From an uncultured Actinomycetes bacterium (lineage in GTDB: Bacteria; Actinomycetota; JAICYB01): a stretch of DNA of 64,000 nt. Shown here in pieces: positions 1 through 45,355 of this stretch. Location: the NCBI GenBank assembly GCA_964520325.1, contig CAZFOB010000001.1, forward strand, positions 193,556-257,555, written 5' to 3'. Each line of letters starts with the position of its first letter. The first letter of the stretch is position 1. A program made the translations under genes and the position numbers. The notes beneath the pieces are model-generated. The model saw only the letters and a list, made by a program, of their open reading frames with translations. It was not told where the DNA came from and did no database searches.

Positions 1-669
1 GATGTTCGCGCCCGACATAGGTGAGGCGTCTTCGTCCAGCAACGAGACGACCAGACGCCCGACGTCCTCCGGCTGCAGGCCGGGGTTGAGATGAGGCGCG
101 GCCGCGCGGAGCATGTCGGTATCGACCGCGCCCGGCGAGATACAGATGGCGCTGATGTTGTGGTCGCGTCCCTCGACGGCCAGCGCCTCGGTCAATCCGA
201 TCACGCCGAACTTCGAGACGTTGTAGGCGGCGAGCCCCGGGAACTTCTCGGTCGCGTACACCCCGGAGAGGGACCCGACGGTCACGATGCGACCGCCACC
301 CGATGACTTCATCGCTTTGAATGCGTGGCGTGCGCACAGGAACGTGCCCGTGAGATTGGTCGCGATCGTGCGATCCCAGATCTCCGGAGTTGTGTCTTCG
401 ATGAGCGCCTTGTCGAGGATGCCCGCCGCGCAGACGAGCACTGCGACCGGTCCGAGCGCAGCCGTCTCCTCGAAGAGGCGATCGACCTCTTCGACGCGAG
501 AGACGTCGCAGCGGACGGCAAGCGCTGCACCCTCTGGTGAGCCCTCGCTTCGGGCAGCCGCCACGACCTGCATACCGGCTCGGCTCAGCGCCTCGGCCGT
601 TGCGCGCCCGATCCCGCGACTGGCACCGGTAACGATGCCGACTCTCCCACGCAGCCATCCGGTTCCCAT
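1..669 (-). CDS. Short-chain dehydrogenase/reductase (SDR) family oxidoreductase; start codon at 667-669, 3' end runs off the window; candidate sepiapterin-reductase-like enzyme of the pterin operon
   Basis: Minus-strand translation begins MGTGWLRGRVGIVTGASRGIGRATAEAL (TGxxxGxG Rossmann motif) with later YxxxK-type SDR features. Its ATG overlaps the upstream GT stop (ATGA at 666-671). Absent from the ORF track only because it is edge-truncated. Confidence 0.8.
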   Translation of the reverse strand, partial: MGTGWLRGRVGIVTGASRGIGRATAEALSRAGMQVVAAARSEGSPEGAALAVRCDVSRVEEVDRLFEETAALGPVAVLVCAAGILDKALIEDTTPEIWDRTIATNLTGTFLCARHAFKAMKSSGGGRIVTVGSLSGVYATEKFPGLAAYNVSKFGVIGLTEALAVEGRDHNISAICISPGAVDTDMLRAAAPHLNPGLQPEDVGRLVVSLLDEDASPMSGANI

Positions 670-1712
670 CAGGCACACAGCTTGGCGTACAGCACCTCGT
701 GCGCGTCGAGCGTGCGCTCGAGCGACAGGTGGGTCTCGGCGTGCTTACGGCAGTGCGCGCGATCGAGTTGGGGCACGTTCGAGACAGCCGCCGCCGCCTC
801 GCCGACGTCTCTTGTGAGAAAGCCGGTCACACCATCGGCGACGATCTCCACAAGCGCGCCTCGCGCGAACGCGATCACCGGTGTCCCTGCCGCCTGTGCC
901 TCGGCCGCGACGAGACCGTACGGTTCGTCCCATCGCACTGGACAGAGCACCGCCAGCGACCGCGCCATGAGCTCCCATAGTTGCGCGCGCGGGAGCGCGT
1001 CGAGGACGTGGACGCCTCCGCCACTACGGATCGCCGCCGCGTATCTCTCGTCGTAGGCACTCCCGACCACGGTGATCTCCGTTCCGGCCGAGCGTGCGAT
1101 CTCGATCGCATCGGTCGCGCCCTTCTCCGCACTGAATCGTCCGGCGAAGAGCAGACCCTCGCCTGCACGTTCCGACCACGGGATGCGATCGACGGGGACA
1201 CCGTTCCGCAGGACGACGTCAACCTCGATCATCCGGCGCCACGCGCGTGCGTGCGAGTCCGAAACGCAGGCAACGGTCGCCGTGGCGTTGTGGAGAGCGC
1301 GCGCGATCGACTCGGTCGGTGGCAGATGCAACGTGTGCACGACCGGGACGTCCGCCGGGGCGAGCTCGATCGCCGGGACGTCGAAGGCGTGGTTGTGGAC
1401 GACGTCGAAGCCCAAACCGCGGACGAGCGAATAGACGTGGGCAAACGCATCCCGTGCGATGTCGTGATCGCCCGAGTCCGGCCGTCCAGGAGAGCGGGGC
1501 GCCCGGAAGAATGTCGCCTCGAGCATCTCCGGGTTGATCCCCGTGTCAACGATGCGAACGCCCTCGATCTCTGAACCCGAGGCTGCGAAAACGACGACGT
1601 CGTGACCGCGCTCCGTCAGACCTACGGCGATGTCGGCCAGTAGAGCTTGGGATCCCCCGAGCTGCGGGTCGCGGATCGCCGTCACGTGCGGAGCAACGAA
1701 GCCGATCCTCAT
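669..1712 (-). CDS. Glycosyltransferase, group 1 (GT4-like)
   Basis: 347 aa. MRIGFVAPH...GGSQALLADIAVGLTERGHDVVVF N-terminal GT-B fold; C-terminal EPYGLVAAEAQAAGTPVIA sugar-donor motif typical of GT4/group-1 enzymes. ATGA overlap with the upstream methyltransferase. Confidence 0.85.
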   Translation of the reverse strand: MRIGFVAPHVTAIRDPQLGGSQALLADIAVGLTERGHDVVVFAASGSEIEGVRIVDTGINPEMLEATFFRAPRSPGRPDSGDHDIARDAFAHVYSLVRGLGFDVVHNHAFDVPAIELAPADVPVVHTLHLPPTESIARALHNATATVACVSDSHARAWRRMIEVDVVLRNGVPVDRIPWSERAGEGLLFAGRFSAEKGATDAIEIARSAGTEITVVGSAYDERYAAAIRSGGGVHVLDALPRAQLWELMARSLAVLCPVRWDEPYGLVAAEAQAAGTPVIAFARGALVEIVADGVTGFLTRDVGEAAAAVSNVPQLDRAHCRKHAETHLSLERTLDAHEVLYAKLCA

Positions 1713-2437
1713 AGCACGCGTTTGTGGGCCCAGTCGCGCGGTGGGTTCATGCCGAGCAGGTCGTATGGAACGTGCGCGTTACCACGCGCCCTGATCTGAT
1801 CCGCCGCAGCCGGATAGAAGATCCGAGCGAGCTCGACGGCGTTGTCGACCGTCCCGAAGTCGACGTCCATATCGCCGTCGAACGACTCATAGGTGAAACC
1901 TCGGTCGGTCAGCCACTCAACCTCTGCCGGCCAGACGAACGCGATCGTTCCGCCGGGAGCGGTCGCCCGCTCCATCTCCGCAAGTCCCGCTGCACCGCCG
2001 TGGCCGTCCACGGTGGTGAAGGCCGAGCACGAGACGACGAGGTCGGCCGCGCCGTCCGGCACAGGGATCGCATCGAAGTATCCGCCGACGATCACGACGC
2101 CCGAAAGTCGCTTGCGCGTGAGGAGCTCGCGCAAGCTCGCCGCAGGCTCGACGGCGACAACCCGGTCGTAGCGGGTCGAGAGCGAGCACGTCAGTCGGCC
2201 GGTGCCCGCCGCCACCTCGACGACGGTTCGTGCGTCGGGCAATGCATCGAGCACGCGAGGGTGGATGCGTTCGCCGGCGATGAGTCGCTCGTAAAGCTCG
2301 GGCTCCTTGCGGTAGAGGATCTCCCACGCCAGAGACTCCGGGGCGTCGTCGATGAAGCGGCGCCGCTCCTCGGTGTTGAGGAGCTCGAGGTCTTCTTGCC
2401 CGTAACGACCGACGAGTGAGCCGGGCGCGTTAGTCAC
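1709..2437 (-). CDS. Class I SAM-dependent methyltransferase
   Basis: 242 aa. VVEVAAGTGRLTCSLS (motif I, GxGxG-like) and DLVVSCSAF motif II. GTG start overlaps the PTPS stop by 8 nt. Confidence 0.85.
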   Translation of the reverse strand: MTNAPGSLVGRYGQEDLELLNTEERRRFIDDAPESLAWEILYRKEPELYERLIAGERIHPRVLDALPDARTVVEVAAGTGRLTCSLSTRYDRVVAVEPAASLRELLTRKRLSGVVIVGGYFDAIPVPDGAADLVVSCSAFTTVDGHGGAAGLAEMERATAPGGTIAFVWPAEVEWLTDRGFTYESFDGDMDVDFGTVDNAVELARIFYPAAADQIRARGNAHVPYDLLGMNPPRDWAHKRVL

Positions 2438-2840
2438 GTCTGCGTTCGGCCCAGTTCTTCTCGGTCTCGCTCAGTCGCACTGCATAGAGCAGTCCGGACG
2501 GGAGGTTCTGATCCAAACGGTCCCAGAAGGCGCACACGAGATTCTCGGTCGACGGGATCACACCGCGGAGCCAATCGACGTCGACGTTCAGGTTCCGGTG
2601 ATCGACGTCCTCGAGGATCTGCTTGCGCACAACTTTCGCAAGCTCACTCAGGTCGTAGAGATAACCGGTCTCCGGATCCACGTCGCCGCGCAACGACACC
2701 TCGAGCACGTAGTTGTGGCCGTGGCCGTTGGGGTTGGCACACTTGCCGAAGATCTCGCGGTTGCGCTCGTCGGTGAAGGCCTCGTTGGACAGCGTGTGCC
2801 CGGCGCTGAACGTCTCGCGGCGCGTGATCACGACGGACAT
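2430..2840 (-). CDS. 6-pyruvoyl-tetrahydropterin synthase (PTPS-I, eukaryote/cyanobacteria type; QueD/PTPS superfamily)
   Basis: 136 aa. FSAGHTL...FGKCANPNGHGHNYVLEV...DPETGYLYDLSELA...DHRNLNVDV...STENLVCAFWDRL aligns almost motif-for-motif with mammalian PTPS (CNNPNGHGHNY, His triad, Glu/Asp) rather than E. coli QueD (CGRLHGHSF). First gene of a four-gene minus-strand operon. Confidence 0.9.
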   Translation of the reverse strand: MSVVITRRETFSAGHTLSNEAFTDERNREIFGKCANPNGHGHNYVLEVSLRGDVDPETGYLYDLSELAKVVRKQILEDVDHRNLNVDVDWLRGVIPSTENLVCAFWDRLDQNLPSGLLYAVRLSETEKNWAERRRD

Positions 2841-2883
2841 GGACCAAGGTTATCCGGCCCCCTCGGTCGGGTATCGCCAGTCC

Positions 2884-3084
2884 ATGGCGACCAAGCGCGT
2901 GCCGATCAAGAAGCCGAGGGAGCCCGTCGCCGCTCGTGTCTGTCCGAACTGCGCGTACATCTCCGAGGAACCGGTGGCACGGTGTCCGCGCTGCAACGCC
3001 GCCATGGCCATCGAGCACGACGACAACGCTGTCGATAAGGCCGGAGCCGACTCGTTCCCGGCGAGCGATCCCCCGCAGCACTGA
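2884..3084 (+). CDS. Small zinc-ribbon protein (two CxxC pairs), function unknown
   Basis: 66 aa MATKRVPIKKPREPVAARVCPNCAYISEEPVARCPRCNAAMAIEH... with CPNC...CPRC. The longer track ORF (2713-3084) would overlap PTPS, so the internal ATG at 2884 was chosen. Confidence 0.45.
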   Translation: MATKRVPIKKPREPVAARVCPNCAYISEEPVARCPRCNAAMAIEHDDNAVDKAGADSFPASDPPQH

Positions 3085-3140
3085 AGACCGGCGCGGTAGC
3101 GTCGCGGCGAGCGCCACTCCGAGCGGAGACAGAACGACGC

Positions 3141-3524
3141 TTACTTGCGTTTCAGGTCGAGCTGCCTGGAGAGCATCTTCGGCGCCACCATGCGGTAGCT
3201 CTCCTCGACGAGCTCGGCGATCTCGTCCCAGTCCTGTTCGACGTCGAGGTACACGCCGATCCACCCCTTCGAGCCGACGTAATCGGGGACGTAGAACCGA
3301 TCGGGGGCCGAGCCGACGAGTGCCTGCTGCGCGCCGGGACGTCCCTTGATCTGCATCGAGGGGCGACCCACCTGCGTAGTGCCGCAGAAGATCTTGTCCC
3401 GCACTCGATACGCCGGAGAGGTGTGTCCGCCGAAGGGTTTGTCGACCGCTTCGGGCAAACGCAGGCAGACCTTCCGCAGGCGGGCGTACTTGCTCAAGGG
3501 AACCAGGGTGTAGCGCTTGGGCAC
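3141..3524 (-). CDS. MmcQ/YjbR family DNA-binding protein
   Basis: 127 aa. PFGGHTSPAYRVRDKIFC...GWIGVYLD pattern typical of the MmcQ/YjbR (DUF419) fold. Confidence 0.7.
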   Translation of the reverse strand: MPKRYTLVPLSKYARLRKVCLRLPEAVDKPFGGHTSPAYRVRDKIFCGTTQVGRPSMQIKGRPGAQQALVGSAPDRFYVPDYVGSKGWIGVYLDVEQDWDEIAELVEESYRMVAPKMLSRQLDLKRK

Positions 3525-3564
3525 GCCTCGACGCTACCGCGCCGGCGCCGTCGGGCTGACGTCG

Positions 3565-3783
3565 TCAGCTTGAGATGCGGCGCGGCCAGGCGATAAGAGC
3601 CAGGCCGGCGATCGCAACCACGGCACCGATCAGCACCCAGGTGGAGCTGTTCGTCATGAACGACTCGCTCACGATGACGCCGATGCCCTGAAAGAACCAG
3701 ACCCCGCCCAAAAGGACGAGCACGGCGCCGATGATCCTCCTGACCATATAACGATGGTCGCGGTGTTCCTTACGGCCGGTCAA
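3565..3783 (-). CDS. Small hydrophobic membrane protein (2 TM), hypothetical
   Basis: 72 aa with two hydrophobic helices (IIGAVLVLLGGVWFF, WVLIGAVVAIAGLALIAW). No recognised family. Confidence 0.4.
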   Translation of the reverse strand: MTGRKEHRDHRYMVRRIIGAVLVLLGGVWFFQGIGVIVSESFMTNSSTWVLIGAVVAIAGLALIAWPRRISS

Positions 3784-3800
3784 GGTGTCATCCTTCGGAC

Positions 3801-5360
3801 GTGAACGGCGAACGCCGGATCGGCGCGCTGATCGGTCTTCTGAGCGCGACGGTGGCGGTCGCCGTCGCGCACCTCTTGGCCGCTTTCATCGACGAGGCCG
3901 CCTCGCCCATCACGGCCGTCGGCGCGGCGGTCATCGATATGTCGCCGGCTGCGGTCAAAGAGTTCGCGATCAGCACCTTCGGTGCCCGCGACAAGCTTGC
4001 ACTCGTGATCGGGATCTCCGTCCTGCTCGCGGCTTTCGCAGCCGGGATGGGTGCGCTGGCGATGCGCCGTCGCTTCGTCGCCTATGCCACTCTCGGCGCG
4101 TTCGGGGCGCTCGGCGTCCTCGCTGCGATGACACGTCCTGCCGCGGGCACATTGTCCGCCCTCCCAACGATCGCCGGGATCGCGGTCGCGCTGCTGTCCA
4201 TCCGCGTCTTGTTCGCGATGACCGAGCCCCGTGGATCGCACGATGCGCCCGCTCCATCGGCAGCGCCGGTCAACGACGGTCCAAGAGAGCCGGGCTTCGA
4301 CCGCCGGCGGTTCCTGATCGCCGGCGCCGCATTCGGTGGCACGGCCGCAGCCGCGGGGATCGCAAGTCGTTTCGCGAGTGCCGCGACGCGACGGACGGTG
4401 ACCTCGCGCGCGGCACTGACGATCCCTAAGCCGTCCGATGTCGCAGCGGCAGCGTCGGGGACGGATCTCCGCATCGCCGGTCTCAGCCCCTTCCGCACAC
4501 CCAACTCGACGTTCTACCGGGTGGACACCGCGCTCTTCGTCCCGAAGATCGACGCGCGAGACTGGCGACTGCGGATCCACGGCATGGTCGATCGTGAGAT
4601 CGAGATCGACATGGAGCAACTGCTGTCGCGGCCCCTCATCGAACGCGACATCACGCTCGCGTGCGTCAGCAACGAGGTGGGTGGCTCGTACATCGGCAAC
4701 GCCAGGTGGATCGGCGCTCCGCTGAAACCGATCCTGGACGAGGCCGGCGTCCACGAGGGCGCCGACCAACTCGTGTCGCGGTCCGCCGATGGGTTCACCG
4801 CGGGCACCCCGACCGCCGACCTGATGGACGGACGCGACGCGATGCTCGCGGTCGCGATGAACGGTGAGCCGCTTCCGCTCAAGCATGGGTTCCCAGTACG
4901 TATGGTCGTGCCCGGGCTGTACGGCTACGTCTCAGCGACGAAGTGGGTGGTGGACATGAAGCTCACCACGTTCGACGCGTTCGACGCGTACTGGATCTCG
5001 CGCGGTTGGGCGCGGCGGGCACCGATCAAAACCATGTCGCGGATCGATACACCGCGCTCGTCACGGGAACTCGCGGCGGGTAACGTCGCGATCGCCGGGG
5101 TCGCTTGGGCGCAGACCAAGGGGATCGCGCGGGTCGAGGTGCGGATCGACGACGGGCCATGGGAGCGCGCTGAGCTCGCGGGCGAAGACACGATCGACAC
5201 GTGGCGGCAATGGGTCTACCGATGGAAGGCAACGCCGGGGTCGCACAGGATCGCCGTCCGCGCGACGGATAAGACCGGCTACACGCAAACTCCAAGGAAA
5301 GCACCACCCATCCCGGACGGGGCGACCGGCTGGCACACGATCTACGCAACGGTTGTGTAG
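3801..5360 (+). CDS. Molybdopterin-dependent oxidoreductase, sulfite-oxidase fold, with N-terminal 4-TM membrane domain and internal twin-arginine motif
   Basis: 519 aa. N-terminal hydrophobic helices, then DRRRFLIAGAAFGG (Tat-like), then Moco-binding core (LACVSNEVGGSYIGNARWIGAPLKPILDEAG; MVVPGLYGYVSATKWV) and a C-terminal dimerisation domain. Confidence 0.85.
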   Translation: MNGERRIGALIGLLSATVAVAVAHLLAAFIDEAASPITAVGAAVIDMSPAAVKEFAISTFGARDKLALVIGISVLLAAFAAGMGALAMRRRFVAYATLGAFGALGVLAAMTRPAAGTLSALPTIAGIAVALLSIRVLFAMTEPRGSHDAPAPSAAPVNDGPREPGFDRRRFLIAGAAFGGTAAAAGIASRFASAATRRTVTSRAALTIPKPSDVAAAASGTDLRIAGLSPFRTPNSTFYRVDTALFVPKIDARDWRLRIHGMVDREIEIDMEQLLSRPLIERDITLACVSNEVGGSYIGNARWIGAPLKPILDEAGVHEGADQLVSRSADGFTAGTPTADLMDGRDAMLAVAMNGEPLPLKHGFPVRMVVPGLYGYVSATKWVVDMKLTTFDAFDAYWISRGWARRAPIKTMSRIDTPRSSRELAAGNVAIAGVAWAQTKGIARVEVRIDDGPWERAELAGEDTIDTWRQWVYRWKATPGSHRIAVRATDKTGYTQTPRKAPPIPDGATGWHTIYATVV

Positions 5361-5501
5361 GCGGTCCGAACGCCGAACCAACGAGCCCGGCCCATCGTTA
5401 AGCTTCGCAGGACTACTCGATCAGCTCCTATTTCCTGCGGCGGGGAAGAACTCATCCAAACCGATAACTATCGCGCCGCCGCGGCGGCTGCCGCCGTTGC
5501 C

Positions 5502-7109
5502 ATGCTGGCCACTGTGTTCACGGTCGTCGACGCTCGGGCCGACAACCAACCGGTGGGCGGCGTCGTCACGGAGCAAGACCATCGCTGCGGTCGCAAGGAT
5601 CTCCCCGAGACCGGCATCCAAGGGGACGTGCCTCGCGCCGACCAGACGTCAGGACGCGCCGAGCAGGGCTACAACTGCGGCCTCGCCCTGGTGGGCCACA
5701 CAACGCTCGGCGCCCAGAAACGCCAGGCCACAGGCAACGCGAACATGGCGTGGGCAGGCAACTGCGCCTACGTTGCCGGTCCGGGTGCCGTCTTCGGCCA
5801 GCCCTCCCCCGAGCCCGGGCACGGCGTGGCCGTGGTCGACGTGTCGGACCCGGCGCACCCGCGACACGTCCGCACACTCCGCACGTCCGGCTCGATCGCG
5901 GCCTCCGAGACCCTGCACGCAGTCGAGACGGGCAAGCGATCCGTCCTCGTCGTCGGGCAGTACGGCAATCAGGCCGGCGGCAACAAGCCGATGGACGTCT
6001 ACGACGTTTCGGACTGCGCAAAGCCGCGGCTGTTGGAAACCTTCCGTTGGCCGGAGAACATCCACAACCTCACGATCTCCGGCAACGGACGCTACGTCTT
6101 CGCCACGCAGCCTCTTCAGGTTGCGGACATCGGCCCGTTGTTCGACGCGGACAAGCGCACTCGTACGAAATACCTCGGCAATCTCGAGGCCGCTACGCCG
6201 GGTCTGCCGTTCGCCGTTGGCCCCTCCGCTGATCTCGACGATGCTCTCCCGGAGTCCCTGAGAGAGGCCGACCACAACCGCTACTTGAGCCACGAAGCGT
6301 GGCCCACCTCCGACGGAACGAAGGTGTACCTCGGCGGCCAGCTCCCGGTGTTCGAGGCCTTCACGATCCTCGACATCCGCAAGTGGCTCGAGCGCGACGC
6401 CAAGGGGCGGCCCGCGGGCCCGCCGAAGGTGCTCAGCCAACGCAGCGGCCGGGGCCACTCGGTGCGCACAGCAACGATCGGCGGCCGGCCATACGTGCTC
6501 CACTCCGAGGAGAGCGTGTTCGGGCCGACGTGGGGCTGCTTGCCCGAATCACTCAACCCCTTCGCCGGCCCGGCCCAGCCCTGGCTGACCGACATCAGCG
6601 ATGAGCGGAAGCCGGTGCTGGTCTCGCAATTCGGTCTGGAGATCAACGATCCGGAGAACTGCCCCGCGCAGATCACATCGAACGTGAGGACCTCGGTCCA
6701 CTACCACGACGTCGACAACCCAAAGGACACGACGTTCGTCATGGCGTCGATGTGGAACTCAGGTGTACGACTCTTCGACGTGCGAAAGCCGTCGCGGCCG
6801 GCAGAGGTCGCGTACTTCAACCCCGGCGACGTCGACGCAACAAACGGGGTCACGCTCGATCACGCCTGGGGACACGTCCGCTTCGTGCCGGAGACCGGCC
6901 ACGTTTGGTTCGCCACCTCCGCCGGTGGCTTCTGGGTCGTCGAGATCGAGCCGCAGGTACGCCGGCGGCTCGGTCTGTATGCGAAGGGTCCCAGGCTCGA
7001 GACGCGTCACCCGATGGGGCGCCCCGCACGCCGGGGCGTGAACGTCGCAGCAGTTGCCACGGTCTTTGATGTCAGCCCGATGTACTGCACGGTTGGTCGC
7101 CTGGGCTGA
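5502..7109 (+). CDS. LVIVD-repeat beta-propeller protein (probably exported)
   Basis: 535 aa. Repeated LxVxDVSDPxxPR units (HGVAVVDVSDPAHPRHV; MDVYDVSDCAKPRLLET) characteristic of PF08309 LVIVD repeats. Start uncertain (no earlier in-frame ATG/GTG). Confidence 0.75.
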   Translation: MLATVFTVVDARADNQPVGGVVTEQDHRCGRKDLPETGIQGDVPRADQTSGRAEQGYNCGLALVGHTTLGAQKRQATGNANMAWAGNCAYVAGPGAVFGQPSPEPGHGVAVVDVSDPAHPRHVRTLRTSGSIAASETLHAVETGKRSVLVVGQYGNQAGGNKPMDVYDVSDCAKPRLLETFRWPENIHNLTISGNGRYVFATQPLQVADIGPLFDADKRTRTKYLGNLEAATPGLPFAVGPSADLDDALPESLREADHNRYLSHEAWPTSDGTKVYLGGQLPVFEAFTILDIRKWLERDAKGRPAGPPKVLSQRSGRGHSVRTATIGGRPYVLHSEESVFGPTWGCLPESLNPFAGPAQPWLTDISDERKPVLVSQFGLEINDPENCPAQITSNVRTSVHYHDVDNPKDTTFVMASMWNSGVRLFDVRKPSRPAEVAYFNPGDVDATNGVTLDHAWGHVRFVPETGHVWFATSAGGFWVVEIEPQVRRRLGLYAKGPRLETRHPMGRPARRGVNVAAVATVFDVSPMYCTVGRLG

Positions 7110-7136: not shown

Positions 7137-7763
7137 TCAGGCCTGGTTCGTCCAGTCGAAGTCGTAGAGGATCCAGTTGCTGTCCTGGAAGCTCATGTCT
7201 ATGCCCTCTGCGGCAACGTGGAAGGTGCCTTGTCCGCAGTCTCCGCGCTTCCAGATGAATCCAGTCGAGAGATCGATTGTCACGCCGTGCGCCTCGCCGG
7301 TCACCGGGTTCTTGAGCGATCCGCCCTTCGCCTCTCCGATGCCGGGGATCGTGAAGCCGCTGTTGATCCCGTCGTCGTTGATCTCGACCGGCGCCCGCAC
7401 GACCCCAGCCACCTCGAACGTCGTCCCGAGGATCGACCACGGGAGGCCACCGAGCTGTCCCGTGAAGATCTGGGCCATCGCGCCGAGCTGATCGTCGCCG
7501 ACCTCAGGCGGCACGACGAAGACGGCCTTGCCGCCGCCATCGTGGATCGCCTTCGGCCAGTCGAAGAGAGCGACAGCCTTGATGCCACTCAGGTCGATGT
7601 CGCCGCAGCGGCCATCCACGATGTGGTTCGCCACCGCGGCCTTGCAGCTTCCGTCGGACGACGAGGGGAAGCCCGAGAAGTTGCATGTACACCCCGGCTG
7701 GCAGTTGCAGAACTCGTATCCCTTGCCCTTCAGGTACCAAGCCGTCGCAACTTCGGTCGTCAT
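7137..7763 (-). CDS. DUF1326 domain-containing protein
   Basis: 208 aa. N-terminal GYEFCNCQPGCTCNF cysteine cluster diagnostic of DUF1326. Lies 10 nt downstream of the DUF2182 gene. Confidence 0.85.
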   Translation of the reverse strand: MTTEVATAWYLKGKGYEFCNCQPGCTCNFSGFPSSSDGSCKAAVANHIVDGRCGDIDLSGIKAVALFDWPKAIHDGGGKAVFVVPPEVGDDQLGAMAQIFTGQLGGLPWSILGTTFEVAGVVRAPVEINDDGINSGFTIPGIGEAKGGSLKNPVTGEAHGVTIDLSTGFIWKRGDCGQGTFHVAAEGIDMSFQDSNWILYDFDWTNQA

Positions 7764-7773
7764 CGGTCCTCCT

Positions 7774-8565
7774 TCATGTCAAGGCCGGCAGAACGCCGGG
7801 CCGAACGAACAGAACGATACCAAGAACGAGGAAGCCGAAAGCGGCCCATCGCGCGAGGCCCTCACCCCACGAGGCGTTCTTCTCGAGAAGGATCAGCGCG
7901 GCCAGCGCAAGCATCCATCCGAGGTTCATCGTCCCGAACGCGACGAGGATCGCCATGAGCGCCCAGCAGCATCCGACGCAGTAGGCGCCGTGCGTCGCGC
8001 CCATCCGGGCGGCGCCGAGGGGTCGCGTGACCGATCCTCCGAAACGCAAGAATAGCGACATAGGTGAGCGGCAATGTCTCAGGCACGCTGCCTTCAACGG
8101 TGTGAGTTGCCATAGCGCTGCACCGATCAGGACGCCTCCAGCGCAACGGGCTGCCCAAACTTCAGCCGTCGCGATCGGATCCATCAGTGCGCGCCATGCG
8201 ACATACGCGGGCAGGCCGAGCGACGTCCATACGACGATGTATCCCGCGACGAAGAACGGGAGCGGCGCGACACGCCCGGCGGCAGCGCCGCGTCCATACA
8301 GCTTCACGACCGGCGAGATCGCTGGGAACATCATCGCGGTCATCATCGCGAGCCATGCGACCATGAAGGACGCGAGGGATAAGACGCTCTCGGCTCCCAT
8401 CGATCCCATCCCCATGGAGTCGCCCGTCATGTCCGCGACCATCCGAACCGACCACCACCAGCCAGCCACGGCGAACGCGACGAGGACGATGTGGATGCCG
8501 ACACCGTCGAGTGCACGACGACGGATCCCTGCGGTGATCCCATGGCCGGCGGAAGGAACAGGCAT
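7774..8565 (-). CDS. DUF2182 domain-containing integral membrane protein (predicted metal-binding)
   Basis: 263 aa polytopic membrane protein with the HGAYCVGCCW motif typical of DUF2182; canonical partner of DUF1326. Confidence 0.85.
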   Translation of the reverse strand: MPVPSAGHGITAGIRRRALDGVGIHIVLVAFAVAGWWWSVRMVADMTGDSMGMGSMGAESVLSLASFMVAWLAMMTAMMFPAISPVVKLYGRGAAAGRVAPLPFFVAGYIVVWTSLGLPAYVAWRALMDPIATAEVWAARCAGGVLIGAALWQLTPLKAACLRHCRSPMSLFLRFGGSVTRPLGAARMGATHGAYCVGCCWALMAILVAFGTMNLGWMLALAALILLEKNASWGEGLARWAAFGFLVLGIVLFVRPGVLPALT

Positions 8566-8657: not shown

Positions 8658-9812
8658 TCAGCGCGCGGCGCTGAGGCGTTCGAGCGCGGTGACTGCGTCA
8701 GACGCGCCACCGTAGCCGGAGATCGTGACGGCCATCTGCTTCGCTGCGGCCCGGCACGTCGCGTCGTCGAGGACGCCGCGCGCCGCGTCGATGATCTCCG
8801 AGGCGTCGGCGTCCGGCATCAGCATCCGCCCCGCTCCCAGTGTCTGCACCTGCTCGGCGTTGAAGAACTGGTCGCGACCCATCGGCATGCACAGCAGGGG
8901 TACGCCGTTGCCAAGCGCCGACATCACGGTGCCGAGACCGGCATGCGTGATGACGAGGGACGTCGAGGGCAACAGCTCGGCGTGCGGGACGTACGACACA
9001 ACCTGCGTGTTGGCGCCGGCCGCCACGGTGGCCGGGTCGATCGACGGTCCGGTCGTGACGACCGCGCGGACCGGCAGTACCGCGACGGCATCCACGATCC
9101 GCTGGAGGAGCGCAGCCTGCCCCTGCTCGCTCGTGCTGAGACTCACGAGGACGAGAGGCGTCGATCCGTCCGTGACGTCGACGTCGTCGGTGGTCTTCAT
9201 GAGCGGTGGAGCGTCGAGCACGGGCCCCATGCGCACGACGTTGCCTGCGTCGCCCGCCTCGGGCTCGAACTCTATCGGCAACGCGACGATCGCGACGTCG
9301 CATGCGTCGTGCACGTCTCCGAGCTTCGCGACGGGAGCCAGCCCGAGCTCGTTCCTGTGCGCGTTCAGCCGCTCGAGACCGGGCGAGAACATCTCGACGA
9401 GCGGGCCGCCGCGGAAGATCGTGTAGGGCGTATGGACGAGCGTCGCGGTCGGCAAGCCCGACGCCTGAGCCACGTTCAGTGCACTCCACAACATGCAGTC
9501 GACCATCACCACGTCGGCCGGTTCGCGCTCCAGCTCGGCCGCCACGTCATCTGCGATATCGGAGCTGAAGCACAGCTGGTCCATCATCAGCTCGACCTCC
9601 GCCTCGAAGTCGTCGGGATCGTCCATCTCGTCCCACCCTTCAGGCTGCTCGAAAGAGATGAACCGCGCGCCGACGTCGCCGCAACGCTGGACGATCGTGT
9701 CGTGTCCGAGGATGCGGACGTCGTGTCCGGCCTCGACGAGGTGACGGGCGATGCCGAGCGTCGGCACGAGATTCCCCGCGCCGTCCCACGTCACGATCAG
9801 GTAACGGGCCAT
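8658..9812 (-). CDS. Glycosyltransferase family 1, MGT/UDP-glycosyltransferase type (macrolide-glycosyltransferase-like)
   Basis: 384 aa. MARYLIVTWDGAGNLVPTLGIARHLVEAGHDVRIL N-terminal acceptor domain and C-terminal UDP-sugar motif (HAGLGTVMSALGNGVPLLCMPMGRDQ). Confidence 0.85.
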   Translation of the reverse strand: MARYLIVTWDGAGNLVPTLGIARHLVEAGHDVRILGHDTIVQRCGDVGARFISFEQPEGWDEMDDPDDFEAEVELMMDQLCFSSDIADDVAAELEREPADVVMVDCMLWSALNVAQASGLPTATLVHTPYTIFRGGPLVEMFSPGLERLNAHRNELGLAPVAKLGDVHDACDVAIVALPIEFEPEAGDAGNVVRMGPVLDAPPLMKTTDDVDVTDGSTPLVLVSLSTSEQGQAALLQRIVDAVAVLPVRAVVTTGPSIDPATVAAGANTQVVSYVPHAELLPSTSLVITHAGLGTVMSALGNGVPLLCMPMGRDQFFNAEQVQTLGAGRMLMPDADASEIIDAARGVLDDATCRAAAKQMAVTISGYGGASDAVTALERLSAAR

Positions 9813-9837
9813 GAGCGATCCTCCCTCGACTCGGTCA

Positions 9838-9880
9838 CTTGACAGACTGTAAAGTAGGCTATGCTTGACAGCATGTCAAG
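9838..9880. promoter_or_regulatory. Divergent promoter region with two operator-like palindromes (CTTGACA-gac-TGTAAAG and CTTGACA-gca-TGTCAAG); putative -35 TTGACA / -10 TACTTT for the minus-strand GT gene
   Basis: Read directly: 7-3-7 inverted repeats at 9838-9854 and 9864-9880, the second overlapping the TetR start codon. On the minus strand, TTGACA (9879-9874) and TACTTT (9856-9851) are separated by 17 bp. Confidence 0.4.
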
Positions 9881-10466
9881 TGCGGGCCGGCCCGACACAC
9901 GCACGGCGATCCTCGAGTCGGCTCGCGTCCTGTTCGAAGAGCAGGGCTACTTCGGCGCGGCACTCGAAGCCGTCGGGAAGTTGGCCGGCGTCTCCCGGCA
10001 GGCGATCTATCTCCACTTCGCCTCGAAGGCCGACCTCCTCACCGAGCTGCATCTGCACATCTACGAGACGGACGTCGTCCCCGCACTCGAGCGTCATCCC
10101 ATATGGACGGCGCCGACTGCCCTCGAAGCGCTCGACGCAACCATCGCGGTGGACGCCGAGGTCGCGTCGAAGATCTGGAGGATCCATGAGGCCCTGGTCG
10201 TGGCGCGCCGGCATCATCCCGAGGTCGACGAGACGCTGCGGCCGCGAGAGGAGGAGCGTTACCAAGAGCTGGTGCGCCTGGGTCGCTGGCTCAAGAAGGA
10301 GGGTGAACTACCGCCGAGGACGAGCGCCGGGACCTTCGCCGACATGTTGTGGGGCCTGGGTTCCCTCGGCACCTTCCAGAACCTCGTCATCGAGCGCGGC
10401 TGGTCGATCGACCGGTGGACGAGATGGGTGCGCAACACGATCCGGGCCCAACTCATCGCTACGTAG
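9861..10466 (+). CDS. TetR/AcrR family transcriptional regulator
   Basis: 201 aa. N-terminal HTH RTAILESARVLFEEQGYFGAALEAVGKLAGVSRQAIYLHFASKADLL typical of TetR. Confidence 0.9.
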   Translation: MLDSMSSAGRPDTRTAILESARVLFEEQGYFGAALEAVGKLAGVSRQAIYLHFASKADLLTELHLHIYETDVVPALERHPIWTAPTALEALDATIAVDAEVASKIWRIHEALVVARRHHPEVDETLRPREEERYQELVRLGRWLKKEGELPPRTSAGTFADMLWGLGSLGTFQNLVIERGWSIDRWTRWVRNTIRAQLIAT

Positions 10467-13372: not shown

Positions 13373-13514
13373 CTCCTCACGAGGATAGGTGGCGCTCCGA
13401 ACGGAGACCTCAGGTGATCACATCGAAGCTCGAAAACGTTCTACCCCTATGAGGTCTGGGCATCGGCACAATCAGAAGTCCGACTACTAGGCAATTCTGG
13501 ATGCCGAACCGGCG

Positions 13515-13586
13515 TGGGCGTCCGAGGAATCGAACCTCGCACATCTACCTTGTAAGGGTAGCGCTCTACCACTGAGCTAGACGCCC
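13515..13586 (-). tRNA. tRNA-Val (anticodon TAC)
   Basis: Reverse complement GGGCGTCTAGCTCAGTGGTAGAGCGCTACCCTTACAAGGTAGATGTGCGAGGTTCGATTCCTCGGACGCCCA folds as a cloverleaf: 7-bp acceptor stem, GTGGTAGAGC D-arm, anticodon loop CTTACAA, GGTTCGATTCC T-arm. CCA is not encoded. Confidence 0.9.
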
Positions 13587-15643: not shown

Positions 15644-16606
15644 TCAGGGCGTGAACAGGTACTTCAGCCCCGGCTCGAAGCCGAGCTCGCGCTTGACCTC
15701 TTCGGCGACCGATCCGAACTCCACGCCGAGGAAGTTTCCGAAGCCACCGGGCGCCCGGTACTCCACCAGCTTCGCGTCTGAGCGATCGAGATCGGCGAGC
15801 CCCAGCGCTTCGTCGTACGCGTCGTCGAGGTCGCCGAAGGCGTCGATGAGGCCGTTGTCCTTCGCGTCGGCGCCCGAATAGGGACGTCCGTCCGCGAGCT
15901 TGCGCACGGCGTCCTCGTCCATGTCTCTTCCTTCGGCGACGGTGGCGACGAACTGGTCGTAGGACTCGTCAAGCAGACGCTGATAGATCGCACGATCCTT
16001 GTCGGTCATCTCGCGGAACGGTGAGCCCGTGTCCTTCGAGGCGCCGGACTTCAAGATGATCGGCTTCGCGCCGAGCTTCTGGACGGTGCCTTCGAGGTTG
16101 AAGAGGACGGCGATCACGCCGATCGAACCAGTGATCGTGCTGCGGTTGGCGATGATCCGCTCGGCTTGCGACGCGATGTAGTACCCACCGGATGCGGCGA
16201 GATCACCCATCGACGCAACAACCGGCTTCTCCTCGCTCAATCGCGAGACCGCGCGCGCGATGTCGTCGGACGCAACGACCGCACCGCCCGGAGAGTCGAT
16301 GCGCAGGATCACCGCGGAAACCTTGTCATCGTCGGAGGCTTGGCGGAGCTGTCCGATGACGTCGAGTGCGCCGGCTCCACCGTCGCCGAACAAGCTCGGT
16401 GCGCTCTCTCCACCGTGGATCTCACCGAACACGTCGACCACCGCGACTTTCTTCAAACCACCGCCCTGCAGATGCTTCTCGACCCAGTCACCCCCACCGG
16501 CCAGACGTCCGAGTGAAACTGCGATCAGGACACCGAACCCGAGGACCACGATGAGAACCACGGAGACGGCCCCGACGATCAGCGCGATCCAACCCCTGCG
16601 GCTCAC
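15644..16606 (-). CDS. sppA: Signal peptide peptidase SppA (36K type)
   Basis: 320 aa. N-terminal TM, ClpP/crotonase-like fold with [14 protein letters not shown] serine motif. GTG start overlaps the aspS stop. Confidence 0.85.
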
Positions 16607-18432
16607 GACTTCTCCTCTCCAAGAACGCGCAGACCGAGATCGCGAAGGAGGATCGGGTCAACCGACGCTGGCGCTCCTGTCAGCAGGTCGCTTCCGGTCT
16701 GGGTCTTCGGAAACGCCAGCACGTCGCGCAGCGACGTCGAACCGGTGAGCGCCATGACCACGCGGTCGACGCCCATCCCGACGCCGCCGTGCGGTGGCGC
16801 GCCGTGCGCGAGCGCTTCGAGGAACCAGCCGAACCGCGCCTCGATCTCCTCGGAGCTCAAGCCCAGCACCTCGAAGACCTTGCGCTGCAGATCCACACGA
16901 TGCATCCGGATCGATCCGCTGAGCAGCTCCATCCCGTTGATCACGAGGTCGTACTGCTGCGACTTCGCGTTCGCCGGGTCGGTCGCGAACGTTTCGAGCG
17001 TGTCCGGGGTCGGCGCATAGAACGGATTGCCGGCCGATTGCCATTCCCCTTTGGCCCCTTGGGCCCCTTGGGCCCCTTGGGCACCGCCATCGGTCTGTTC
17101 GAACATCGGCATGTCGATGATCCACGCGAACCGCCAGTCCGCTGGCTCCGCTGTGCTCGTGATCCATCCGAGCTCCCGCGCAAGCTGAACACGCAGAGCC
17201 CCGAGAACCTTGCTCGCCAGCCGTGGCTCGTCGGCGGCCAGAAGGAGGAGGTCACCGTTGCCGGCCTCGAGCTCCCGTCTGATCCCCGCAAGCTCGTCCT
17301 CGGACAAGAACTTCGCGATCGGCGCCCGCAGGCCGATCGAACCGTCGGTGGCGGGCTCGGCGACCATCCACACCAAGCCTTTGGCACCCAGCTCCTTCGC
17401 ACGGTCGATCAGTCCGTCGAGCATCGTTCGCGAAGCGTCGGTACCTGCACCGGCTACGCGCAGTCCCCGCACCGCTCCCCCGGCCTGAAGAGTCGCGCCG
17501 AACGCGTTGAACGTGGTTGCGGCGAACACGGCCGACAGATCGACGATGGCCGGCCCGGCTGCTTCGCGCATGTCGGGCTGATCGGTGCCGTAGGACCCGA
17601 GCGCGTCGTCGAAGCTGATCCGCGCGAACGGCACGTCGATCTCACAACCGAGTGCCTCCCGCCACACGCGCGCCATGAGCTGTTCCACGATCGCGAGGAT
17701 GTCGTCGCGTTCGACGAACGCCATCTCGAAGTCGAGCTGCACGTGCTCGATCTGGCGATCCGCACGCGGGTCCTCGTCCCGGAAGCACGGCGCGAGCTGG
17801 TAGTAGCGCTCGATGCCACCGACCATCAGCGTCTGCTTGTAGAGCTGCGGCGACTGCGCGAGCGCATAGAAGCTTCCGCGCTGGTGACGCGACGGAACGA
17901 TGAAGTCGCGCGAGCCCTCGGGGGTCGAGCGCGTCATGATCGGCGTCTCGACCTCGATGAAGTCGAGCTCTTCGAAATGGTCACGGATGGTCTTGCGCAC
18001 CTGAGAGCGGAGAGAAAGCGATCGCTGCATCTTCGCGCGCCGAAGATCGATGTATCGGTGACGCAGGCGTGTCGTCTCCTCGGCTTCGACGTCGTCGCTC
18101 ACCGGGAACGGCAACGGCGGACACTCCGATAGGACCTCGACAAGCTCCGCGACGATCTCGATCTCTCCCGTCGGGAGCTTCGGGTTGCGCGTGCCCTCCG
18201 GTCGCATGCGCACCTCGCCGGTCACCTTCACGCACCATTCGTCCCGCACACGATGTGCGACCTCGGCAACGTCCGATGCCTCGCAAACCACTTGCACGAC
18301 CCCGGATGCATCGCGAACGTCGACGAACTTCACGCCACCATGGTCACGGTGGGCGTTCACCCAGCCGGCGATCGCAACGTTGCTCCCCGCATCGCCGGCT
18401 GTCAGCGCTCCCGCGCCGTGAGTCCTGATCAC
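16603..18432 (-). CDS. aspS: Aspartate--tRNA ligase
   Basis: 609 aa. N-terminal OB anticodon-binding domain, class II motifs ([11 protein letters not shown]; GGGIGWDR-like C-terminus). Contains a (GAQ)3-4 insertion. Confidence 0.95.
17046..17081. repeat. 9-bp tandem repeat (CCCCTTGGG x3 perfect + 1 imperfect) inside aspS, encoding [13 protein letters not shown]
   Basis: Direct reading of 17046-17081; in frame, so it expands a surface loop just before the conserved xPFxxP motif. Confidence 0.9.
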
Positions 18433-19727
18433 GAAAGACCTTTCTGGAACTCCCCGACGAGTTGGCCGAGCGCCACTTCCCGCTGGTCGCCGGCCCGCAG
18501 GTCGCGGATGTTCGCCATGCCGCGACCGACCTCATCGGTTCCGAGGATCACAGCGTGCGCAGCGCCCGACCTGTCGGCAGCTCTGATCTGTGCGCGCATC
18601 GATTTCGGCTCATCCGACACGATCACGGCCAGACCCGCCGCGCGAAGGTCGAACGCCGTTGCCATCGCGATCCCGGCAAGTCCCTCGAGCCAGACCACGT
18701 AGACGTCCGGCCGCACGACCTCGAGCTCACGTTGCTCGCGCAGGGCCACCATCACCGGCTCGGTCCCAACGGCGAACCCGGCGGCGGGAGTCGACGCTCC
18801 GCCGAGGAGCTCGATCAGCCCGTCGTAGCGGCCACCTCCGCAGATCGTCCCGCGCGCACCGAACCCCTCGAGTACGAACTCGAATACCGTCCGCGTGTAG
18901 TAGTCGAATCCACGCACGAGGTGCGGATCGTTCTTCCACACGATGCCGAGCGTTTCGAGGATCTCCTGCACGGAATCGAAATGCGCTCGGCACTCGTCGC
19001 ACAGGAACTCTGTGATCAGCGGGACGTCGCCACCACGGAGGATCTTCTGACAGGACGCCACCTTGCAGTCGAAGACACGCAGCGGATTCTTCACGAGGCG
19101 GACGTGGCAGTCACCGCAGAGATCGTCGATCTTGTCCTCGAGCGCCTGACGCAACACCTCGAAGTAACGCACCCGATCCTCCGGATGACCCATCGAGTTG
19201 AGGTAGAGCTGAGGCTCGAGTCCGACGGCCGCGAAGAACTGCGATGCCAATCCGATGAGCTCTGCGTCCACGATCGGGTGAGCCGAACCGATACACTCCG
19301 CATCGATCTGGTGGAACTGACGAGTGCGTCCCTTCTGTGGACGTTCGTAGCGGAACATCCACCCCATCATCGACAAGCGAACGGGCAGAGCCTGCTTCTT
19401 GCCAAGCTCGTGCTCGATGAACGCTCGCGCGATCCCCGCGGTGGCGTCCGGACGGAGCGTGAACGACCGGTCTCGGCGATCGGTGAAGGTGTACATCTGC
19501 TTGTCGAGCACGACCTCGGACGCATCGCCCGCTGCGCGCTGGAACACCTCGGTCTGCTCGAAGACCGGCGTCTCGATGCGCCGATACCCGTGGCGTTCGA
19601 AGAGCGAACGCGCCGCGTCTTCGAGCGAGGTCAGCAGCTCGGAGCTCGGTGGCAGCAGGTCGGGAACGCCACGCGGTGCCTGAGGGGTTGGCATCTGTTG
19701 GTTATACAGGGTGCGCTTACCGCCCAC
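18429..19727 (-). CDS. hisS: Histidine--tRNA ligase
   Basis: 432 aa. Class II motifs and HisRS-specific regions (GGRYDGL, C-terminal anticodon-binding domain). GTG start with GGGG SD upstream; an alternative ATG lies at 19694. Confidence 0.95.
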
Positions 19728-19745
19728 GCGAGACCCCGCCCTTGT

Positions 19746-20186
19746 CTAGTTCGATTCGACGAGCACGGTCACGGGGCCGTCGTTGGTGAGCTCGACGTCC
19801 ATATGGGCGCCGAACACGCCCGTCCCCGTTTGGATACCGAGCTCGGTGAGAGCAGCCGCGACGCATGCCACCAGTGGCTCGGCCACCTCCGGCCGCGCAG
19901 CTTCGACGAAGGACGGACGCCGGCCCTTGCGGGTATCGGCATACAGCGTGAACTGACTCACGACGAGCGCCTCCCCGCCGATGTCCAGAACGGATCGGTT
20001 CATCTGCCCATCGGCATCGGCGAAGATGCGCAGGTTCGCGAGCTTGTCGGCGACGTATGCAGCGTCGGCCTCGGTGTCGGTCCGGTGAACACCGAGCAGG
20101 ACGAGCAGTCCGAACCCGATCTCCGAGACCAGATCACCGTCCACGTGCACGGCGGCACGGCAGACCCGTTGCGCCAACGCCCGCAC
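19746..20186 (-). CDS. dtd: D-aminoacyl-tRNA deacylase
   Basis: 147 aa from GTG preceded by GGAAGGAG SD: MRALAQRV...GLLVLLGV...SQFTLYAD (conserved Dtd motifs incl. SQFTL). Confidence 0.9.
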
Positions 20187-20228
20187 GACGCTATCTCCTT
20201 CCGCTGGGCATCGCACAGGCGCCCGTCG

Positions 20229-38126: not shown

Positions 38127-39199
38127 CTGCTCAGCTCGATATGGAAAAAGCGATGGAATTCATGGAGCAGGTGTTCGGCCACCTCCAAGGAGCCGTCGTG
38201 TCGACCCTCATCCATCTCGGCGACAAGCTCGGCCTCTACAAGGCGATGCAGGACGCCGGGCCGCTCACCGCCGACGAGCTGGCTGCGAAGACCGGGTTGC
38301 ACCCACGCTGGCTGCTCGAGTGGCTGCGCAACCAGGGTGCGGCCGGTCTCCTCGTCTACCAGGGCAACGACCGATTCGAGCTGAACGCCGAGCAGGCCGC
38401 CGTGCTCGCGGATGAGGAGAACTCGGTGCTCTTCGCGGCCGGTGGATTCCAGGGCATGCCCGCTCTCGCGTCACTCGTCGGACCGCTACAGGAATCGTTC
38501 CGCACGGGCATCGGTCTGCCCTACGACGCCCAGGGCGTGGACGGCAATCACGGCGTCGCTCGCATGTTCGCGCCGTGGTTCCGCCACATGCTCGTCCCGG
38601 TGATCTTGCCCGGCCTCGATGGGGTTACGCCCAAGCTCGAGGCGGGGGCCAAGGTGGCAGACGTCGGTTGCGGCGCCGGCATCGCGCTCATCACACTGGC
38701 GAAGGCGTACCCGAACTCCGAGTACCACGGGTTCGAGCTTTCGCAAGAGGCCCTGAAGCTCGCAGCTCACAACCTCGAGGAGTCGGGCCTGCGGAACGTC
38801 ACGTTCCACGATGTCCGCGGTGAAGCGTTGCCGGACGACAACAGCTTCGACTTCATCACCACGTTCGACTGCATCCACGACATGACCCATCCCACTCAGG
38901 TGATCGGCGCGATCCGCAAGGCCATCAAAGACGACGGGACGTATCTCATCGCCGACATCAAGGGCTTCCCGACCTACGAGGAGAACCTCGAGGAGAACCC
39001 AATGGTCGCGATGATGTACGGCTTCTCGGTCCTCTCGTGCATGTCGTCGGCGACCTCAGAACCCGACGGCGAAGGGCTCGGGACGCTCGGGTTCCACGAG
39101 GCCGTCGCTCGCGAGAAGATCGAGAAGTCAGGATTCACGCGATTCACCGCACACGACTTCGGCAATCCGTTGAACTCGTACTACGAGGTGCGCCCCTAG
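38123..39199 (+). CDS. Class I SAM-dependent methyltransferase with N-terminal winged-helix dimerisation domain
   Basis: 358 aa. VADVGCGAGIALITLA motif I, DFITTFDCIHD motif II/III. Confidence 0.8.
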   Translation: MTAQLDMEKAMEFMEQVFGHLQGAVVSTLIHLGDKLGLYKAMQDAGPLTADELAAKTGLHPRWLLEWLRNQGAAGLLVYQGNDRFELNAEQAAVLADEENSVLFAAGGFQGMPALASLVGPLQESFRTGIGLPYDAQGVDGNHGVARMFAPWFRHMLVPVILPGLDGVTPKLEAGAKVADVGCGAGIALITLAKAYPNSEYHGFELSQEALKLAAHNLEESGLRNVTFHDVRGEALPDDNSFDFITTFDCIHDMTHPTQVIGAIRKAIKDDGTYLIADIKGFPTYEENLEENPMVAMMYGFSVLSCMSSATSEPDGEGLGTLGFHEAVAREKIEKSGFTRFTAHDFGNPLNSYYEVRP

Positions 39200-43220: not shown

Positions 43221-43235
43221 CAGCGCAAGATTGCC

Positions 43236-43556: not shown

Positions 43557-43760
43557 GCTGCAAATCCTATCTCAACGGTCCGGCCCGCTCACCCGAGGCC
43601 GCAGGCCGAGGACCACAGGAGGGAACCTCTCGAGCCTGGTTGACGTTATGCCACCAACCTGCCCACCATGGCGGGTGAGGCTTGACTTGCGGGTCAAGCG
43701 CAGTACCGGAGGGGAGCCGGGCTGAAGGGCTGCCCAAAGCCTTCGTGACGGCAGGCACAG

Positions 43761-44093: not shown

Positions 44094-44105
44094 GACGCAA
44101 GTGGG

Positions 44106-45353: not shown

Positions 45354-45355
45354 GG

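Follow-up and report, generated by a model that had tools for sequence, protein, structure and literature searches.

A widespread four-gene operon of uncultured soil bacteria and its candidate role in making a glycosylated, methylated pterin

Four overlapping genes and their recurrence

The first 2,840 positions of a 64,000-nucleotide stretch of contig CAZFOB010000001.1, from an uncultured Actinomycetes bacterium (the whole stretch is hereafter called the window), are occupied by an operon of four minus-strand genes. In order of transcription, they encode a homologue of 6-pyruvoyl-tetrahydropterin synthase (PTPS), an S-adenosylmethionine (SAM) methyltransferase (MT), a GT4 glycosyltransferase (GT) and a classical short-chain dehydrogenase/reductase (SDR). 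In this report, we describe the genes and their conservation, and weigh the proposal that the operon produces a glycosylated, methylated pterin.

The PTPS gene (2840 to 2430, minus strand) encodes 136 amino acids from an ATG start. It is followed by the MT gene (2437 to 1709, minus strand; 242 amino acids), which starts with a GTG that is the sole start codon available in its open reading frame (ORF), and by the GT gene (1712 to 669, minus strand; 347 amino acids). The SDR gene starts at position 669 and runs off the window on the minus strand, past position 1, with its final six codons and stop missing; its full length of 229 amino acids was read from L001, a metagenome contig with the same sequence (Logan assembly, run SRR6868923). 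An initial annotation, made from the sequence alone, had proposed four coupled ORFs at these positions, and all four were found there on the minus strand. That the SDR gene is cut short had gone unremarked. Third-position GC is 0.76 to 0.84 for the four ORFs in these frames. A search with the Pfam profile PF01242, suggested as a check by the initial annotation, matched PTPS with an E-value of 1.2e-31 over positions 2 to 119 of the 121 in the profile. The other products match Methyltransf_11 (MT, 4e-11; also Methyltransf_25), Glycos_transf_1 and Glyco_transf_4 (GT, 4.5e-19 and 2.5e-15) and adh_short (SDR, 2.7e-45).

The PTPS and MT genes overlap by 8 nucleotides (GTGACTAA) and the MT and GT genes by 4 nucleotides (ATGA), both as initially annotated. 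The GT and SDR genes, for which ATGA had also been given, instead meet in a TGATG with a 1-nucleotide overlap. Because a convergent DoxX gene (seen on contig L001) lies beyond the SDR gene and the nearest ORF upstream of PTPS is divergent, the operon consists of exactly four genes. Reading of the sequence leaves a gap of 43 bp (2841 to 2883) between the PTPS start and this divergent small ORF, presumed to be a promoter region or the start of a leaderless operon. A promoter and terminator scan found neither a sigma-70 consensus nor a terminator in this gap, which also holds no Rfam element; Rfam searches (in E-value mode on positions 1 to 6000 and in gathering mode on the whole window) found no riboswitch.

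Two scans addressed conservation. In one, a GT profile was searched with one genome retained per species, yielding 529 confirmed relatives, of which the best 80 loci were fetched. The other was anchored on MT and covered 80 metagenome loci, in which positions were counted only where the flanking DNA sufficed. Relatives are encoded in over 500 stretches from genomes and in over 500 from metagenomes. The initial annotation had considered this gene combination unusual for high-GC Gram-positive genomes, a view that does not survive, given how widespread the cluster is in metagenome-assembled genomes (MAGs). The host labels of the 80 genome loci are Actinomycetota (among them Solirubrobacterales, Streptosporangiaceae and Acidimicrobiales), Chloroflexota or Dormibacterota, with a single exception, a contig that bears the label Candidatus Acidoferrum.

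The full set of four genes occurs in about 58 of the 80 genome loci, mostly in the order PTPS-MT-GT-SDR. In the MT-anchored loci, PTPS lies directly upstream of MT (68/68), GT lies downstream (47/47) and SDR comes next (32/34); because of this linkage to PTPS and GT, we conclude that the MT family is confined to the operon. The overlapping junctions also recur in a called orthologous operon (L083). Gene order varies, with MT on the opposite strand followed by GT, SDR and PTPS in some Dormibacterota, and SDR-PTPS-GT in one Ktedonobacteraceae contig. Partial loci among the 80 comprise GT alone (seven), MT-GT only (four) and SDR-GT only (four). Dozens of unrelated contigs have these four genes in the same order, which puts the block far beyond chance.

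The four genes are therefore strictly co-inherited, and frequently they are accompanied by folE, the gene for GTP cyclohydrolase I (PF01227), which adjoins the cluster in 18 of the 80 genome loci. The three closest relatives of the window (L003, L052 and L058) have it directly ahead of the cluster and in the same direction, and their PTPS proteins share the active-site spacing of the window protein (C-x5-HGH, see below). Thus, the gene-neighborhood comparison that the initial annotation had called for reveals a conserved unit.

A second recurring neighbor is a ferredoxin-reductase-type flavoprotein of about 420 amino acids (Pyr_redox_2 plus Reductase_C), which adjoins the cluster in 49 of the 80 genome loci and may recycle the pterin. 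Its gene is convergent after SDR in most of these loci (for example, L083:10597-11847(-) and L037:4563-5846(-)), and is co-directional and upstream in several MAGs labelled Dormibacterota. The window contains no such flavoprotein gene. Among the neighbor clusters examined, sucrose-phosphate synthase did not recur, nor did any other gene of a sugar pathway.

The four enzymes

PTPS contains the active-site block FGKCANPNGHGHNY, which can be aligned position by position with the human and rat enzymes. Its motif is C34-ANPNG-H40-G-H42, that is, C-x5-HGH. In the alignment, the zinc-binding His triad and the catalytic Cys, Asp, His and Glu of the rat enzyme, like their human counterparts, correspond to H15, H40 and H42 (predicted zinc ligands) and to C34, D80, H81 and E125 (predicted catalytic residues). 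In the published nomenclature of COG0720, CxxxxxHGH denotes PTPS-II (biopterin), CxxxHGH denotes PTPS-I/QueD, and ExxHGH denotes PTPS-III (PMC5041015). The initial annotation had read this block as biopterin-type, which stands, and had labelled it PTPS-I, a naming slip for PTPS-II. PTPS-III, the folate-bypass enzyme, is ruled out by the lack of ExxHGH in the window PTPS.

According to PDB sequence comparison, the best solved relatives of PTPS are the human (3i2b, 2.5e-36) and rat (1b66, 4.1e-33) enzymes. QueD structures match at 1e-8 to 1e-10, about 27 orders of magnitude more weakly than animal PTPS. The protein scores below the cut-off of the QueD equivalog model TIGR03367 (62 versus 89.25 bits) and below that of TIGR00039 (80.1 versus 125.5 bits), and passes only the Pfam gathering score. 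An exhaustive HMMER search of a library of 1.84 billion representative proteins found 120 matches at 1e-30 or better. Among the 150 nearest representatives, 126 have a C-x5-HGH match, and 86 are bimodular or larger, with the remaining 64 being mono-modular. In the closest library relative (56% identity), a methyltransferase homologue comes next, as in the window.

Two near mono-modular C-x5-HGH relatives (51-52% identity; L167, which is GCA_900174565.1, and L168) are encoded in PTPS-FolE-SDR operons, an arrangement that is the expected bacterial tetrahydrobiopterin (BH4) operon. The best solved match of the L167 SDR is Chlorobium sepiapterin reductase (2bd0, 1.4e-28). Given such close relatives in operons with a 2bd0-like SDR, this PTPS clade is repeatedly wired to biopterin synthesis.

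GT matches, over its full length, the BH4 glucosyltransferases (BGluTs) 5ze7 of Synechococcus (4.8e-25, residues 5 to 332) and 9v0l (1.3e-24), with 28-29% identity, and the protein TeGSS (7fg9/8x3q; about 1e-37 and about 31% identity). On the basis of these identities, we place the GTs of the cluster in a branch of their own, the third in this GT4 subfamily. The donor-binding and catalytic motifs of GT4 enzymes, here G19-G20, R192/K197 and E263-x7-E271, are invariant among 16 orthologues. By its sequence, GT is a retaining GT-B/GT4 enzyme of the BGluT/TeGSS subfamily. Automated annotation already half-recognizes it, in that JGI names many orthologues "UDP-glucose:tetrahydrobiopterin glucosyltransferase". 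TeGSS (tll1591; PDB 7FG9/7FGA), the glucosylsucrose synthase of Thermosynechococcus elongatus, adjoins sucrose-phosphate synthase and glucosylates sucrose in thin-layer chromatography (TLC) assays; its structure, solved with BGluT as the search model, has a resolution of 3.0 A and shows sucrose "loosely" bound (PMC9909042). TeGSS and GT align over their full length and have the same GT4 fold and motifs, but the GT gene is tied to those for PTPS, MT and SDR, and in many loci to folE.

Three MAGs, labelled Dormibacterota, Chloroflexia and Actinomycetes (L051, L053 and L068), carry a GT homologue with no PTPS, MT or SDR gene nearby and with a response-regulator/GGDEF gene directly after GT. A histidine-kinase gene lies upstream of GT in L051, L053 and a similar GT-only locus, L056.

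SDR contains TGASRGIG (TGxxxGIG) and the tetrad N105, S133, Y149 and K153, all of which are invariant in orthologues. From what is known of SDRs in general, the Arg residues conserved at positions 18 and 40 point to NADPH as the probable cofactor. The best sequence neighbors are ketoreductases of the FabG/MabA type, the top 50 Foldseek matches are all FabG-like, and orthologues bear generic names only. The initial annotation had pointed to the SDR as the enzyme class of sepiapterin reductase. It is indeed a classical SDR paired with PTPS, but it is FabG-like rather than a member of a known sepiapterin reductase family. In another locus (L166:1-1177), an SDR fragment with 50% identity to the window SDR overlaps the start of a bimodular PTPS in which both domains have C-x5-HGH, and therefore this SDR subfamily is tied to PTPS-II in two independent architectures. 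This suggests that the FabG-like subfamily is a general partner of PTPS-II, distinct from the Chlorobium-type sepiapterin reductase.

MT is, from its sequence, a class I SAM-dependent methyltransferase. Orthologues are conserved from residue 7 onward, and the predicted model has a pLDDT of 96. Similarity to known structures is confined to the Rossmann core, and among those structures are sugar O-, carboxyl O-, N-, S- and C-methyltransferases; the N-terminal 65 or so residues and the C-terminal region are family-specific. Because MT-GT pairs persist in four loci that lack PTPS and SDR, there is a weak hint that the methyl group goes onto the glycoside.

A candidate pterin pathway and its alternatives

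From the enzymes and their neighbors, we infer substrates, an order of steps, a type of sugar donor, candidate methylation sites and a possible physiological role. GTP cyclohydrolase I, presumably encoded elsewhere in the genome, would supply 7,8-dihydroneopterin triphosphate. PTPS, acting as a PTPS-II enzyme, would eliminate the triphosphate and rearrange the side chain to give 6-pyruvoyl-tetrahydropterin. Reduction of the 1',2'-diketone by SDR, predicted to be of the NADPH type, would then yield a biopterin-like dihydroxypropyl side chain. Like BGluT, the retaining GT would use a UDP-sugar to glycosylate a hydroxyl of this side chain. Finally, the dedicated MT would add one methyl group, either on the remaining side-chain hydroxyl or on the sugar. 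A glycosylated, methylated pterin of the biopterin type is our best reading because the four genes form a conserved module to which GTP cyclohydrolase I is often adjacent. The same type of product had been proposed in the initial annotation, and the proposal gains support from the PTPS match, the homology of GT to BGluT and the conserved unit. We estimate its probability at about 0.65.

Several observations weigh against this pathway. All 80 GT-anchored genome loci are MAGs, and folE is absent from the 64-kb window, as judged from the called genes and a six-frame search. TeGSS outscores BGluT as a relative of GT (about 1e-37 versus 5e-25, and 31% versus 28-29% identity) and, because TeGSS is slightly closer, homology does not fix the acceptor. 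Sequence and structure searches returned no informative relative of MT. For SDR, no sepiapterin-reductase model (eukaryotic TIGR01500) appears among the 25 best NCBIfam matches, Chlorobium 2bd0 is not among the 60 best PDB matches, and identity to the 2bd0-like SDRs of the PTPS-FolE-SDR operons is 27-28%. The remaining points concern PTPS. Within the operon family, C-x5-HGH is found in the window and in L003, L052, L058 and L064. Among the loci outside the window, C-x3-HGH (FGKCANL--HGHNY) predominates, in 57 of 61 from genomes and 70 of 74 from metagenomes. The motif argument is therefore weaker than it looked. Moreover, a PTPS-I paralogue of Synechococcus is highly similar to rat PTPS, yet is not a BH4 enzyme (PMC5041015). 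Either this family breaks the spacing rule, or its first product is something other than 6-pyruvoyl-tetrahydropterin. Our confidence stops where it does mainly because the published rule would call most members QueD and because of this warning about similarity.

A first product other than 6-pyruvoyl-tetrahydropterin would fit a PTPS that acts like QueD, or otherwise yields a non-pyruvoyl compound such as 6-carboxy-tetrahydropterin, which the operon would then tailor, for example by methyl-esterification and glycosylation. Beyond the loop of most orthologues and the Synechococcus precedent, this explanation would accommodate the carboxyl methyltransferases (trans-aconitate MT, BioC and LahSb) among the weak matches of MT. 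Nevertheless, we consider it unlikely. The window PTPS itself has C-x5-HGH and, although it shares with QueD/PTPS-I the PF01242 fold and the Zn/Cys/Asp/His/Glu machinery, it scores below the QueD cut-off, lacks que neighbors and is closer to animal PTPS. Even a C-x3 orthologue matches human PTPS at 5.7e-32, as opposed to 1.2e-10 for QueD. Common to both loop variants are an insertion of eight residues ahead of the Cys, DHRNLN and, at the C-terminus, an ETxKNWAE that is missing from animal PTPS. In a neighbor-joining tree, all PTPS proteins of the cluster group with animal PTPS, and the C-x3 forms fall into two separate groups; this tree is based on a short alignment and a provisional E. coli QueD sequence as outgroup, and the PDB E-values are the reliable comparison. 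These results agree with the initial annotation, which had placed PTPS outside QueD. The near-universal ketoreductase partner would also suit a diketone product, not a carboxylate.

Spacing is not absolute among QueD proteins either, since QueD2 has C-x4-HGH (PMC9894224), and "PTPS-II-like" variants adjoining folE were known earlier (PMC5445326). We favor reading the loop difference as an indel within one orthologous, isofunctional PTPS family. Annotation based on the motif would assign PTPS orthologues of a single operon family to two different enzymes. A queuosine or deazapurine pathway is ruled out, because queC, queE and queF are absent both from the window (48 called genes, of which 47 were Pfam-scanned) and from the recurrent neighbors examined in the 80 related loci. 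The initial annotation had likewise judged a role in queuosine unlikely, from the lack of adjacent que and folE genes.

The pterin ring reductases FolM, PTR1, PruA and DHPR are SDRs. By analogy, the SDR of the operon might maintain the tetrahydro state of the ring, with the side chain reduced by another enzyme or left partly oxidized. The distance of SDR from known sepiapterin reductases would be explained in this way, and PruA provides an example of an SDR ring reductase (PMC13259868). However, the best neighbors of SDR are of the FabG/MabA type, and PTR1, FolM and DHPR are missing from the top 50 to 60 matches. Many related loci already have a separate flavoprotein reductase that could recycle the redox state, and the output of PTPS is already a tetrahydropterin. 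We therefore regard a ring-reducing SDR as improbable, and retain a predicted role in reducing the diketo side chain.

Finally, it is very doubtful that GT and MT act on a sugar or other non-pterin acceptor, as TeGSS does on sucrose, with adjacency reflecting mere co-regulation: TeGSS is the best solved relative of GT, and seven related loci have GT alone and four have MT-GT only, but the MT-anchored linkage to PTPS and GT is strict and survives gene-order rearrangements across phyla, no sugar-pathway gene recurs, and the acceptor of TeGSS itself rests on the TLC assays and the loosely bound sucrose. We thus continue to predict that GT places its sugar on the pterin side chain.

The proposed pathway most closely recalls those for known pterin glycosides. 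The BH4-glucoside pathway of Synechococcus sp. PCC 7942 comprises GTP cyclohydrolase I, PTPS-II, sepiapterin reductase and BGluT, and in common with it the operon has PTPS-II, a reductase and a GT-B/GT4 pteridine glycosyltransferase. The operon differs in the 28% identity of GT, the mono-modular PTPS of the window, the FabG-like SDR, the dedicated MT and the hosts, which are non-phototrophic soil lineages. The cyanobacterial BH4 PTPS is reportedly bimodular, a description attributed to Kong et al. in 2006. The window SDR is also unlike the 2BD0-type reductase of the tepidopterin pathway of Chlorobium tepidum, in which, to our knowledge, no methyltransferase takes part. Otherwise that pathway is similar, in that a mono-modular PTPS-II, the sepiapterin reductase 2BD0 and the pteridine glycosyltransferase CtPGT, which uses UDP-GlcNAc, lead to a biopterin glycoside (PMC5683033). 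The PTPS-FolE-SDR operons of L167 and L168 have the nearest mono-modular C-x5-HGH relatives of PTPS together with folE and SDR; they have a 2BD0-type sepiapterin reductase and lack GT and MT, whereas the window has another SDR subfamily and both of these enzymes.

The predicted methylation has precedents among natural pterins with an O-methyl group. In cyanopterin, from Synechocystis PCC 6803, the methyl group is on the sugar, a 4-O-methylglucuronic acid (PMC3546692), and Agrobacterium tumefaciens makes 2'-O-methylmonapterin (PMC13259868), with the methyl group on the side chain. Unlike the product proposed here, their pterin moieties (6-hydroxymethylpterin and monapterin) need no PTPS. Neither of these papers names a methyltransferase for its compound, and MT is a candidate for the missing pterin methyltransferase activity.

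In a 2012 review, pteridine glycosides were listed only from cyanobacteria, green sulfur bacteria (Chlorobium) and Sulfolobus, and their function was unclear (PMC3546692; for the glycosides also PMC5683033). Full-text literature searches turned up no account of a PTPS-methyltransferase-GT-SDR cluster, and none of pterin glycosides from Actinomycetota, Chloroflexota or Dormibacterota. The cluster is an uncharacterized, widespread module, not an oddity of one genome, and departs from the cyanobacterial and Chlorobium pathways in four respects: it includes a dedicated MT, its reductase is not orthologous to theirs, its GT forms a separate branch, and its hosts are different. We tentatively suggest, at somewhat less than even odds, that an undescribed methylated tetrahydropterin glycoside serves as a widespread redox-active cofactor or protectant in non-phototrophic soil Terrabacteria (Actinomycetota, Chloroflexota and Dormibacterota). 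If so, methylation of a pterin or pterin glycoside would gain its first assigned enzyme family in MT, SDR would represent a third kind of side-chain reductase that is not orthologous to the known ones, and the compound would be accompanied in most genomes by its own ferredoxin-reductase-like flavoprotein for recycling. In addition, the C-x3/C-x5-HGH rule by which genome annotation separates QueD from PTPS would break down inside one orthologous group; the two loop lengths offer a natural experiment on this signature rule. Occurrence in abundant, mostly uncultured soil phyla widens the question of pterin-glycoside function beyond photobiology. The operon is small, conserved and easily synthesized, and its chemistry is directly testable in E. 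coli with five genes, including folE.

The remainder of the window

The other genes flanking the operon appear unrelated to it. YjbR, the divergent zinc-ribbon ORF, the molybdenum (Mo) enzyme, a 535-amino-acid protein and DoxX do not recur near the cluster in related loci, and a match to the TetR gene of the window lies near the cluster in a single locus (L052). Because the flanking genes do not recur, the four genes constitute a self-contained module. YjbR, the zinc-ribbon ORF, the Mo enzyme and DoxX are accordingly ruled out as members of the system. The initial annotation had judged the block, which lies near this molybdopterin enzyme, to be probably unrelated to Moco synthesis, and this is borne out by the lack of conservation of the enzyme beside the cluster elsewhere. 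Within the window, neither an aromatic amino-acid hydroxylase nor a carbinolamine dehydratase is found among the Pfam-scanned genes.

The zinc-ribbon ORF (2884 to 3084, plus strand; CxxC...CxxC, 66 amino acids) diverges from PTPS, with the 43 bp mentioned above between the two starts. On contig L002, a 53-amino-acid ORF on the opposite strand of this DNA was called instead, and neither is conserved near the cluster elsewhere. The Mo enzyme is sulfite-oxidase-like (3801 to 5360). Directly downstream of it lies the gene for the 535-amino-acid protein (5502 to 7109, plus strand), which has good coding statistics and no Pfam match. A DUF1326 protein and a PpoB2-type copper chaperone (7137 to 8565, minus strand) are possibly a metal-handling pair. 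At 8658 to 10466, a GT1 glycosyltransferase (EryCIII-like/UDPGT) is divergent from a TetR regulator, in what resembles a unit for small-molecule glycosylation or resistance that has no connection with the pterin operon.

The remaining window is composed of housekeeping genes: aspS, hisS, dtd, relA, apt, secDF, yajC, ETF, plsX, recG and fpg. Among these, relA-dtd-hisS-aspS lie at 16603 to 22478, and yajC-secD-secF-apt lie at 39196 to 45647, with no tgt or queA beside yajC; these gene orders resemble those of an Actinomycetota chromosome. A single tRNA-Val(TAC) is located at 13514 to 13586. Amid the housekeeping genes is a DUF222-HNH endonuclease gene (46786 to 48243, plus strand), a member of a family that is repeated and mobile in Actinomycetota.

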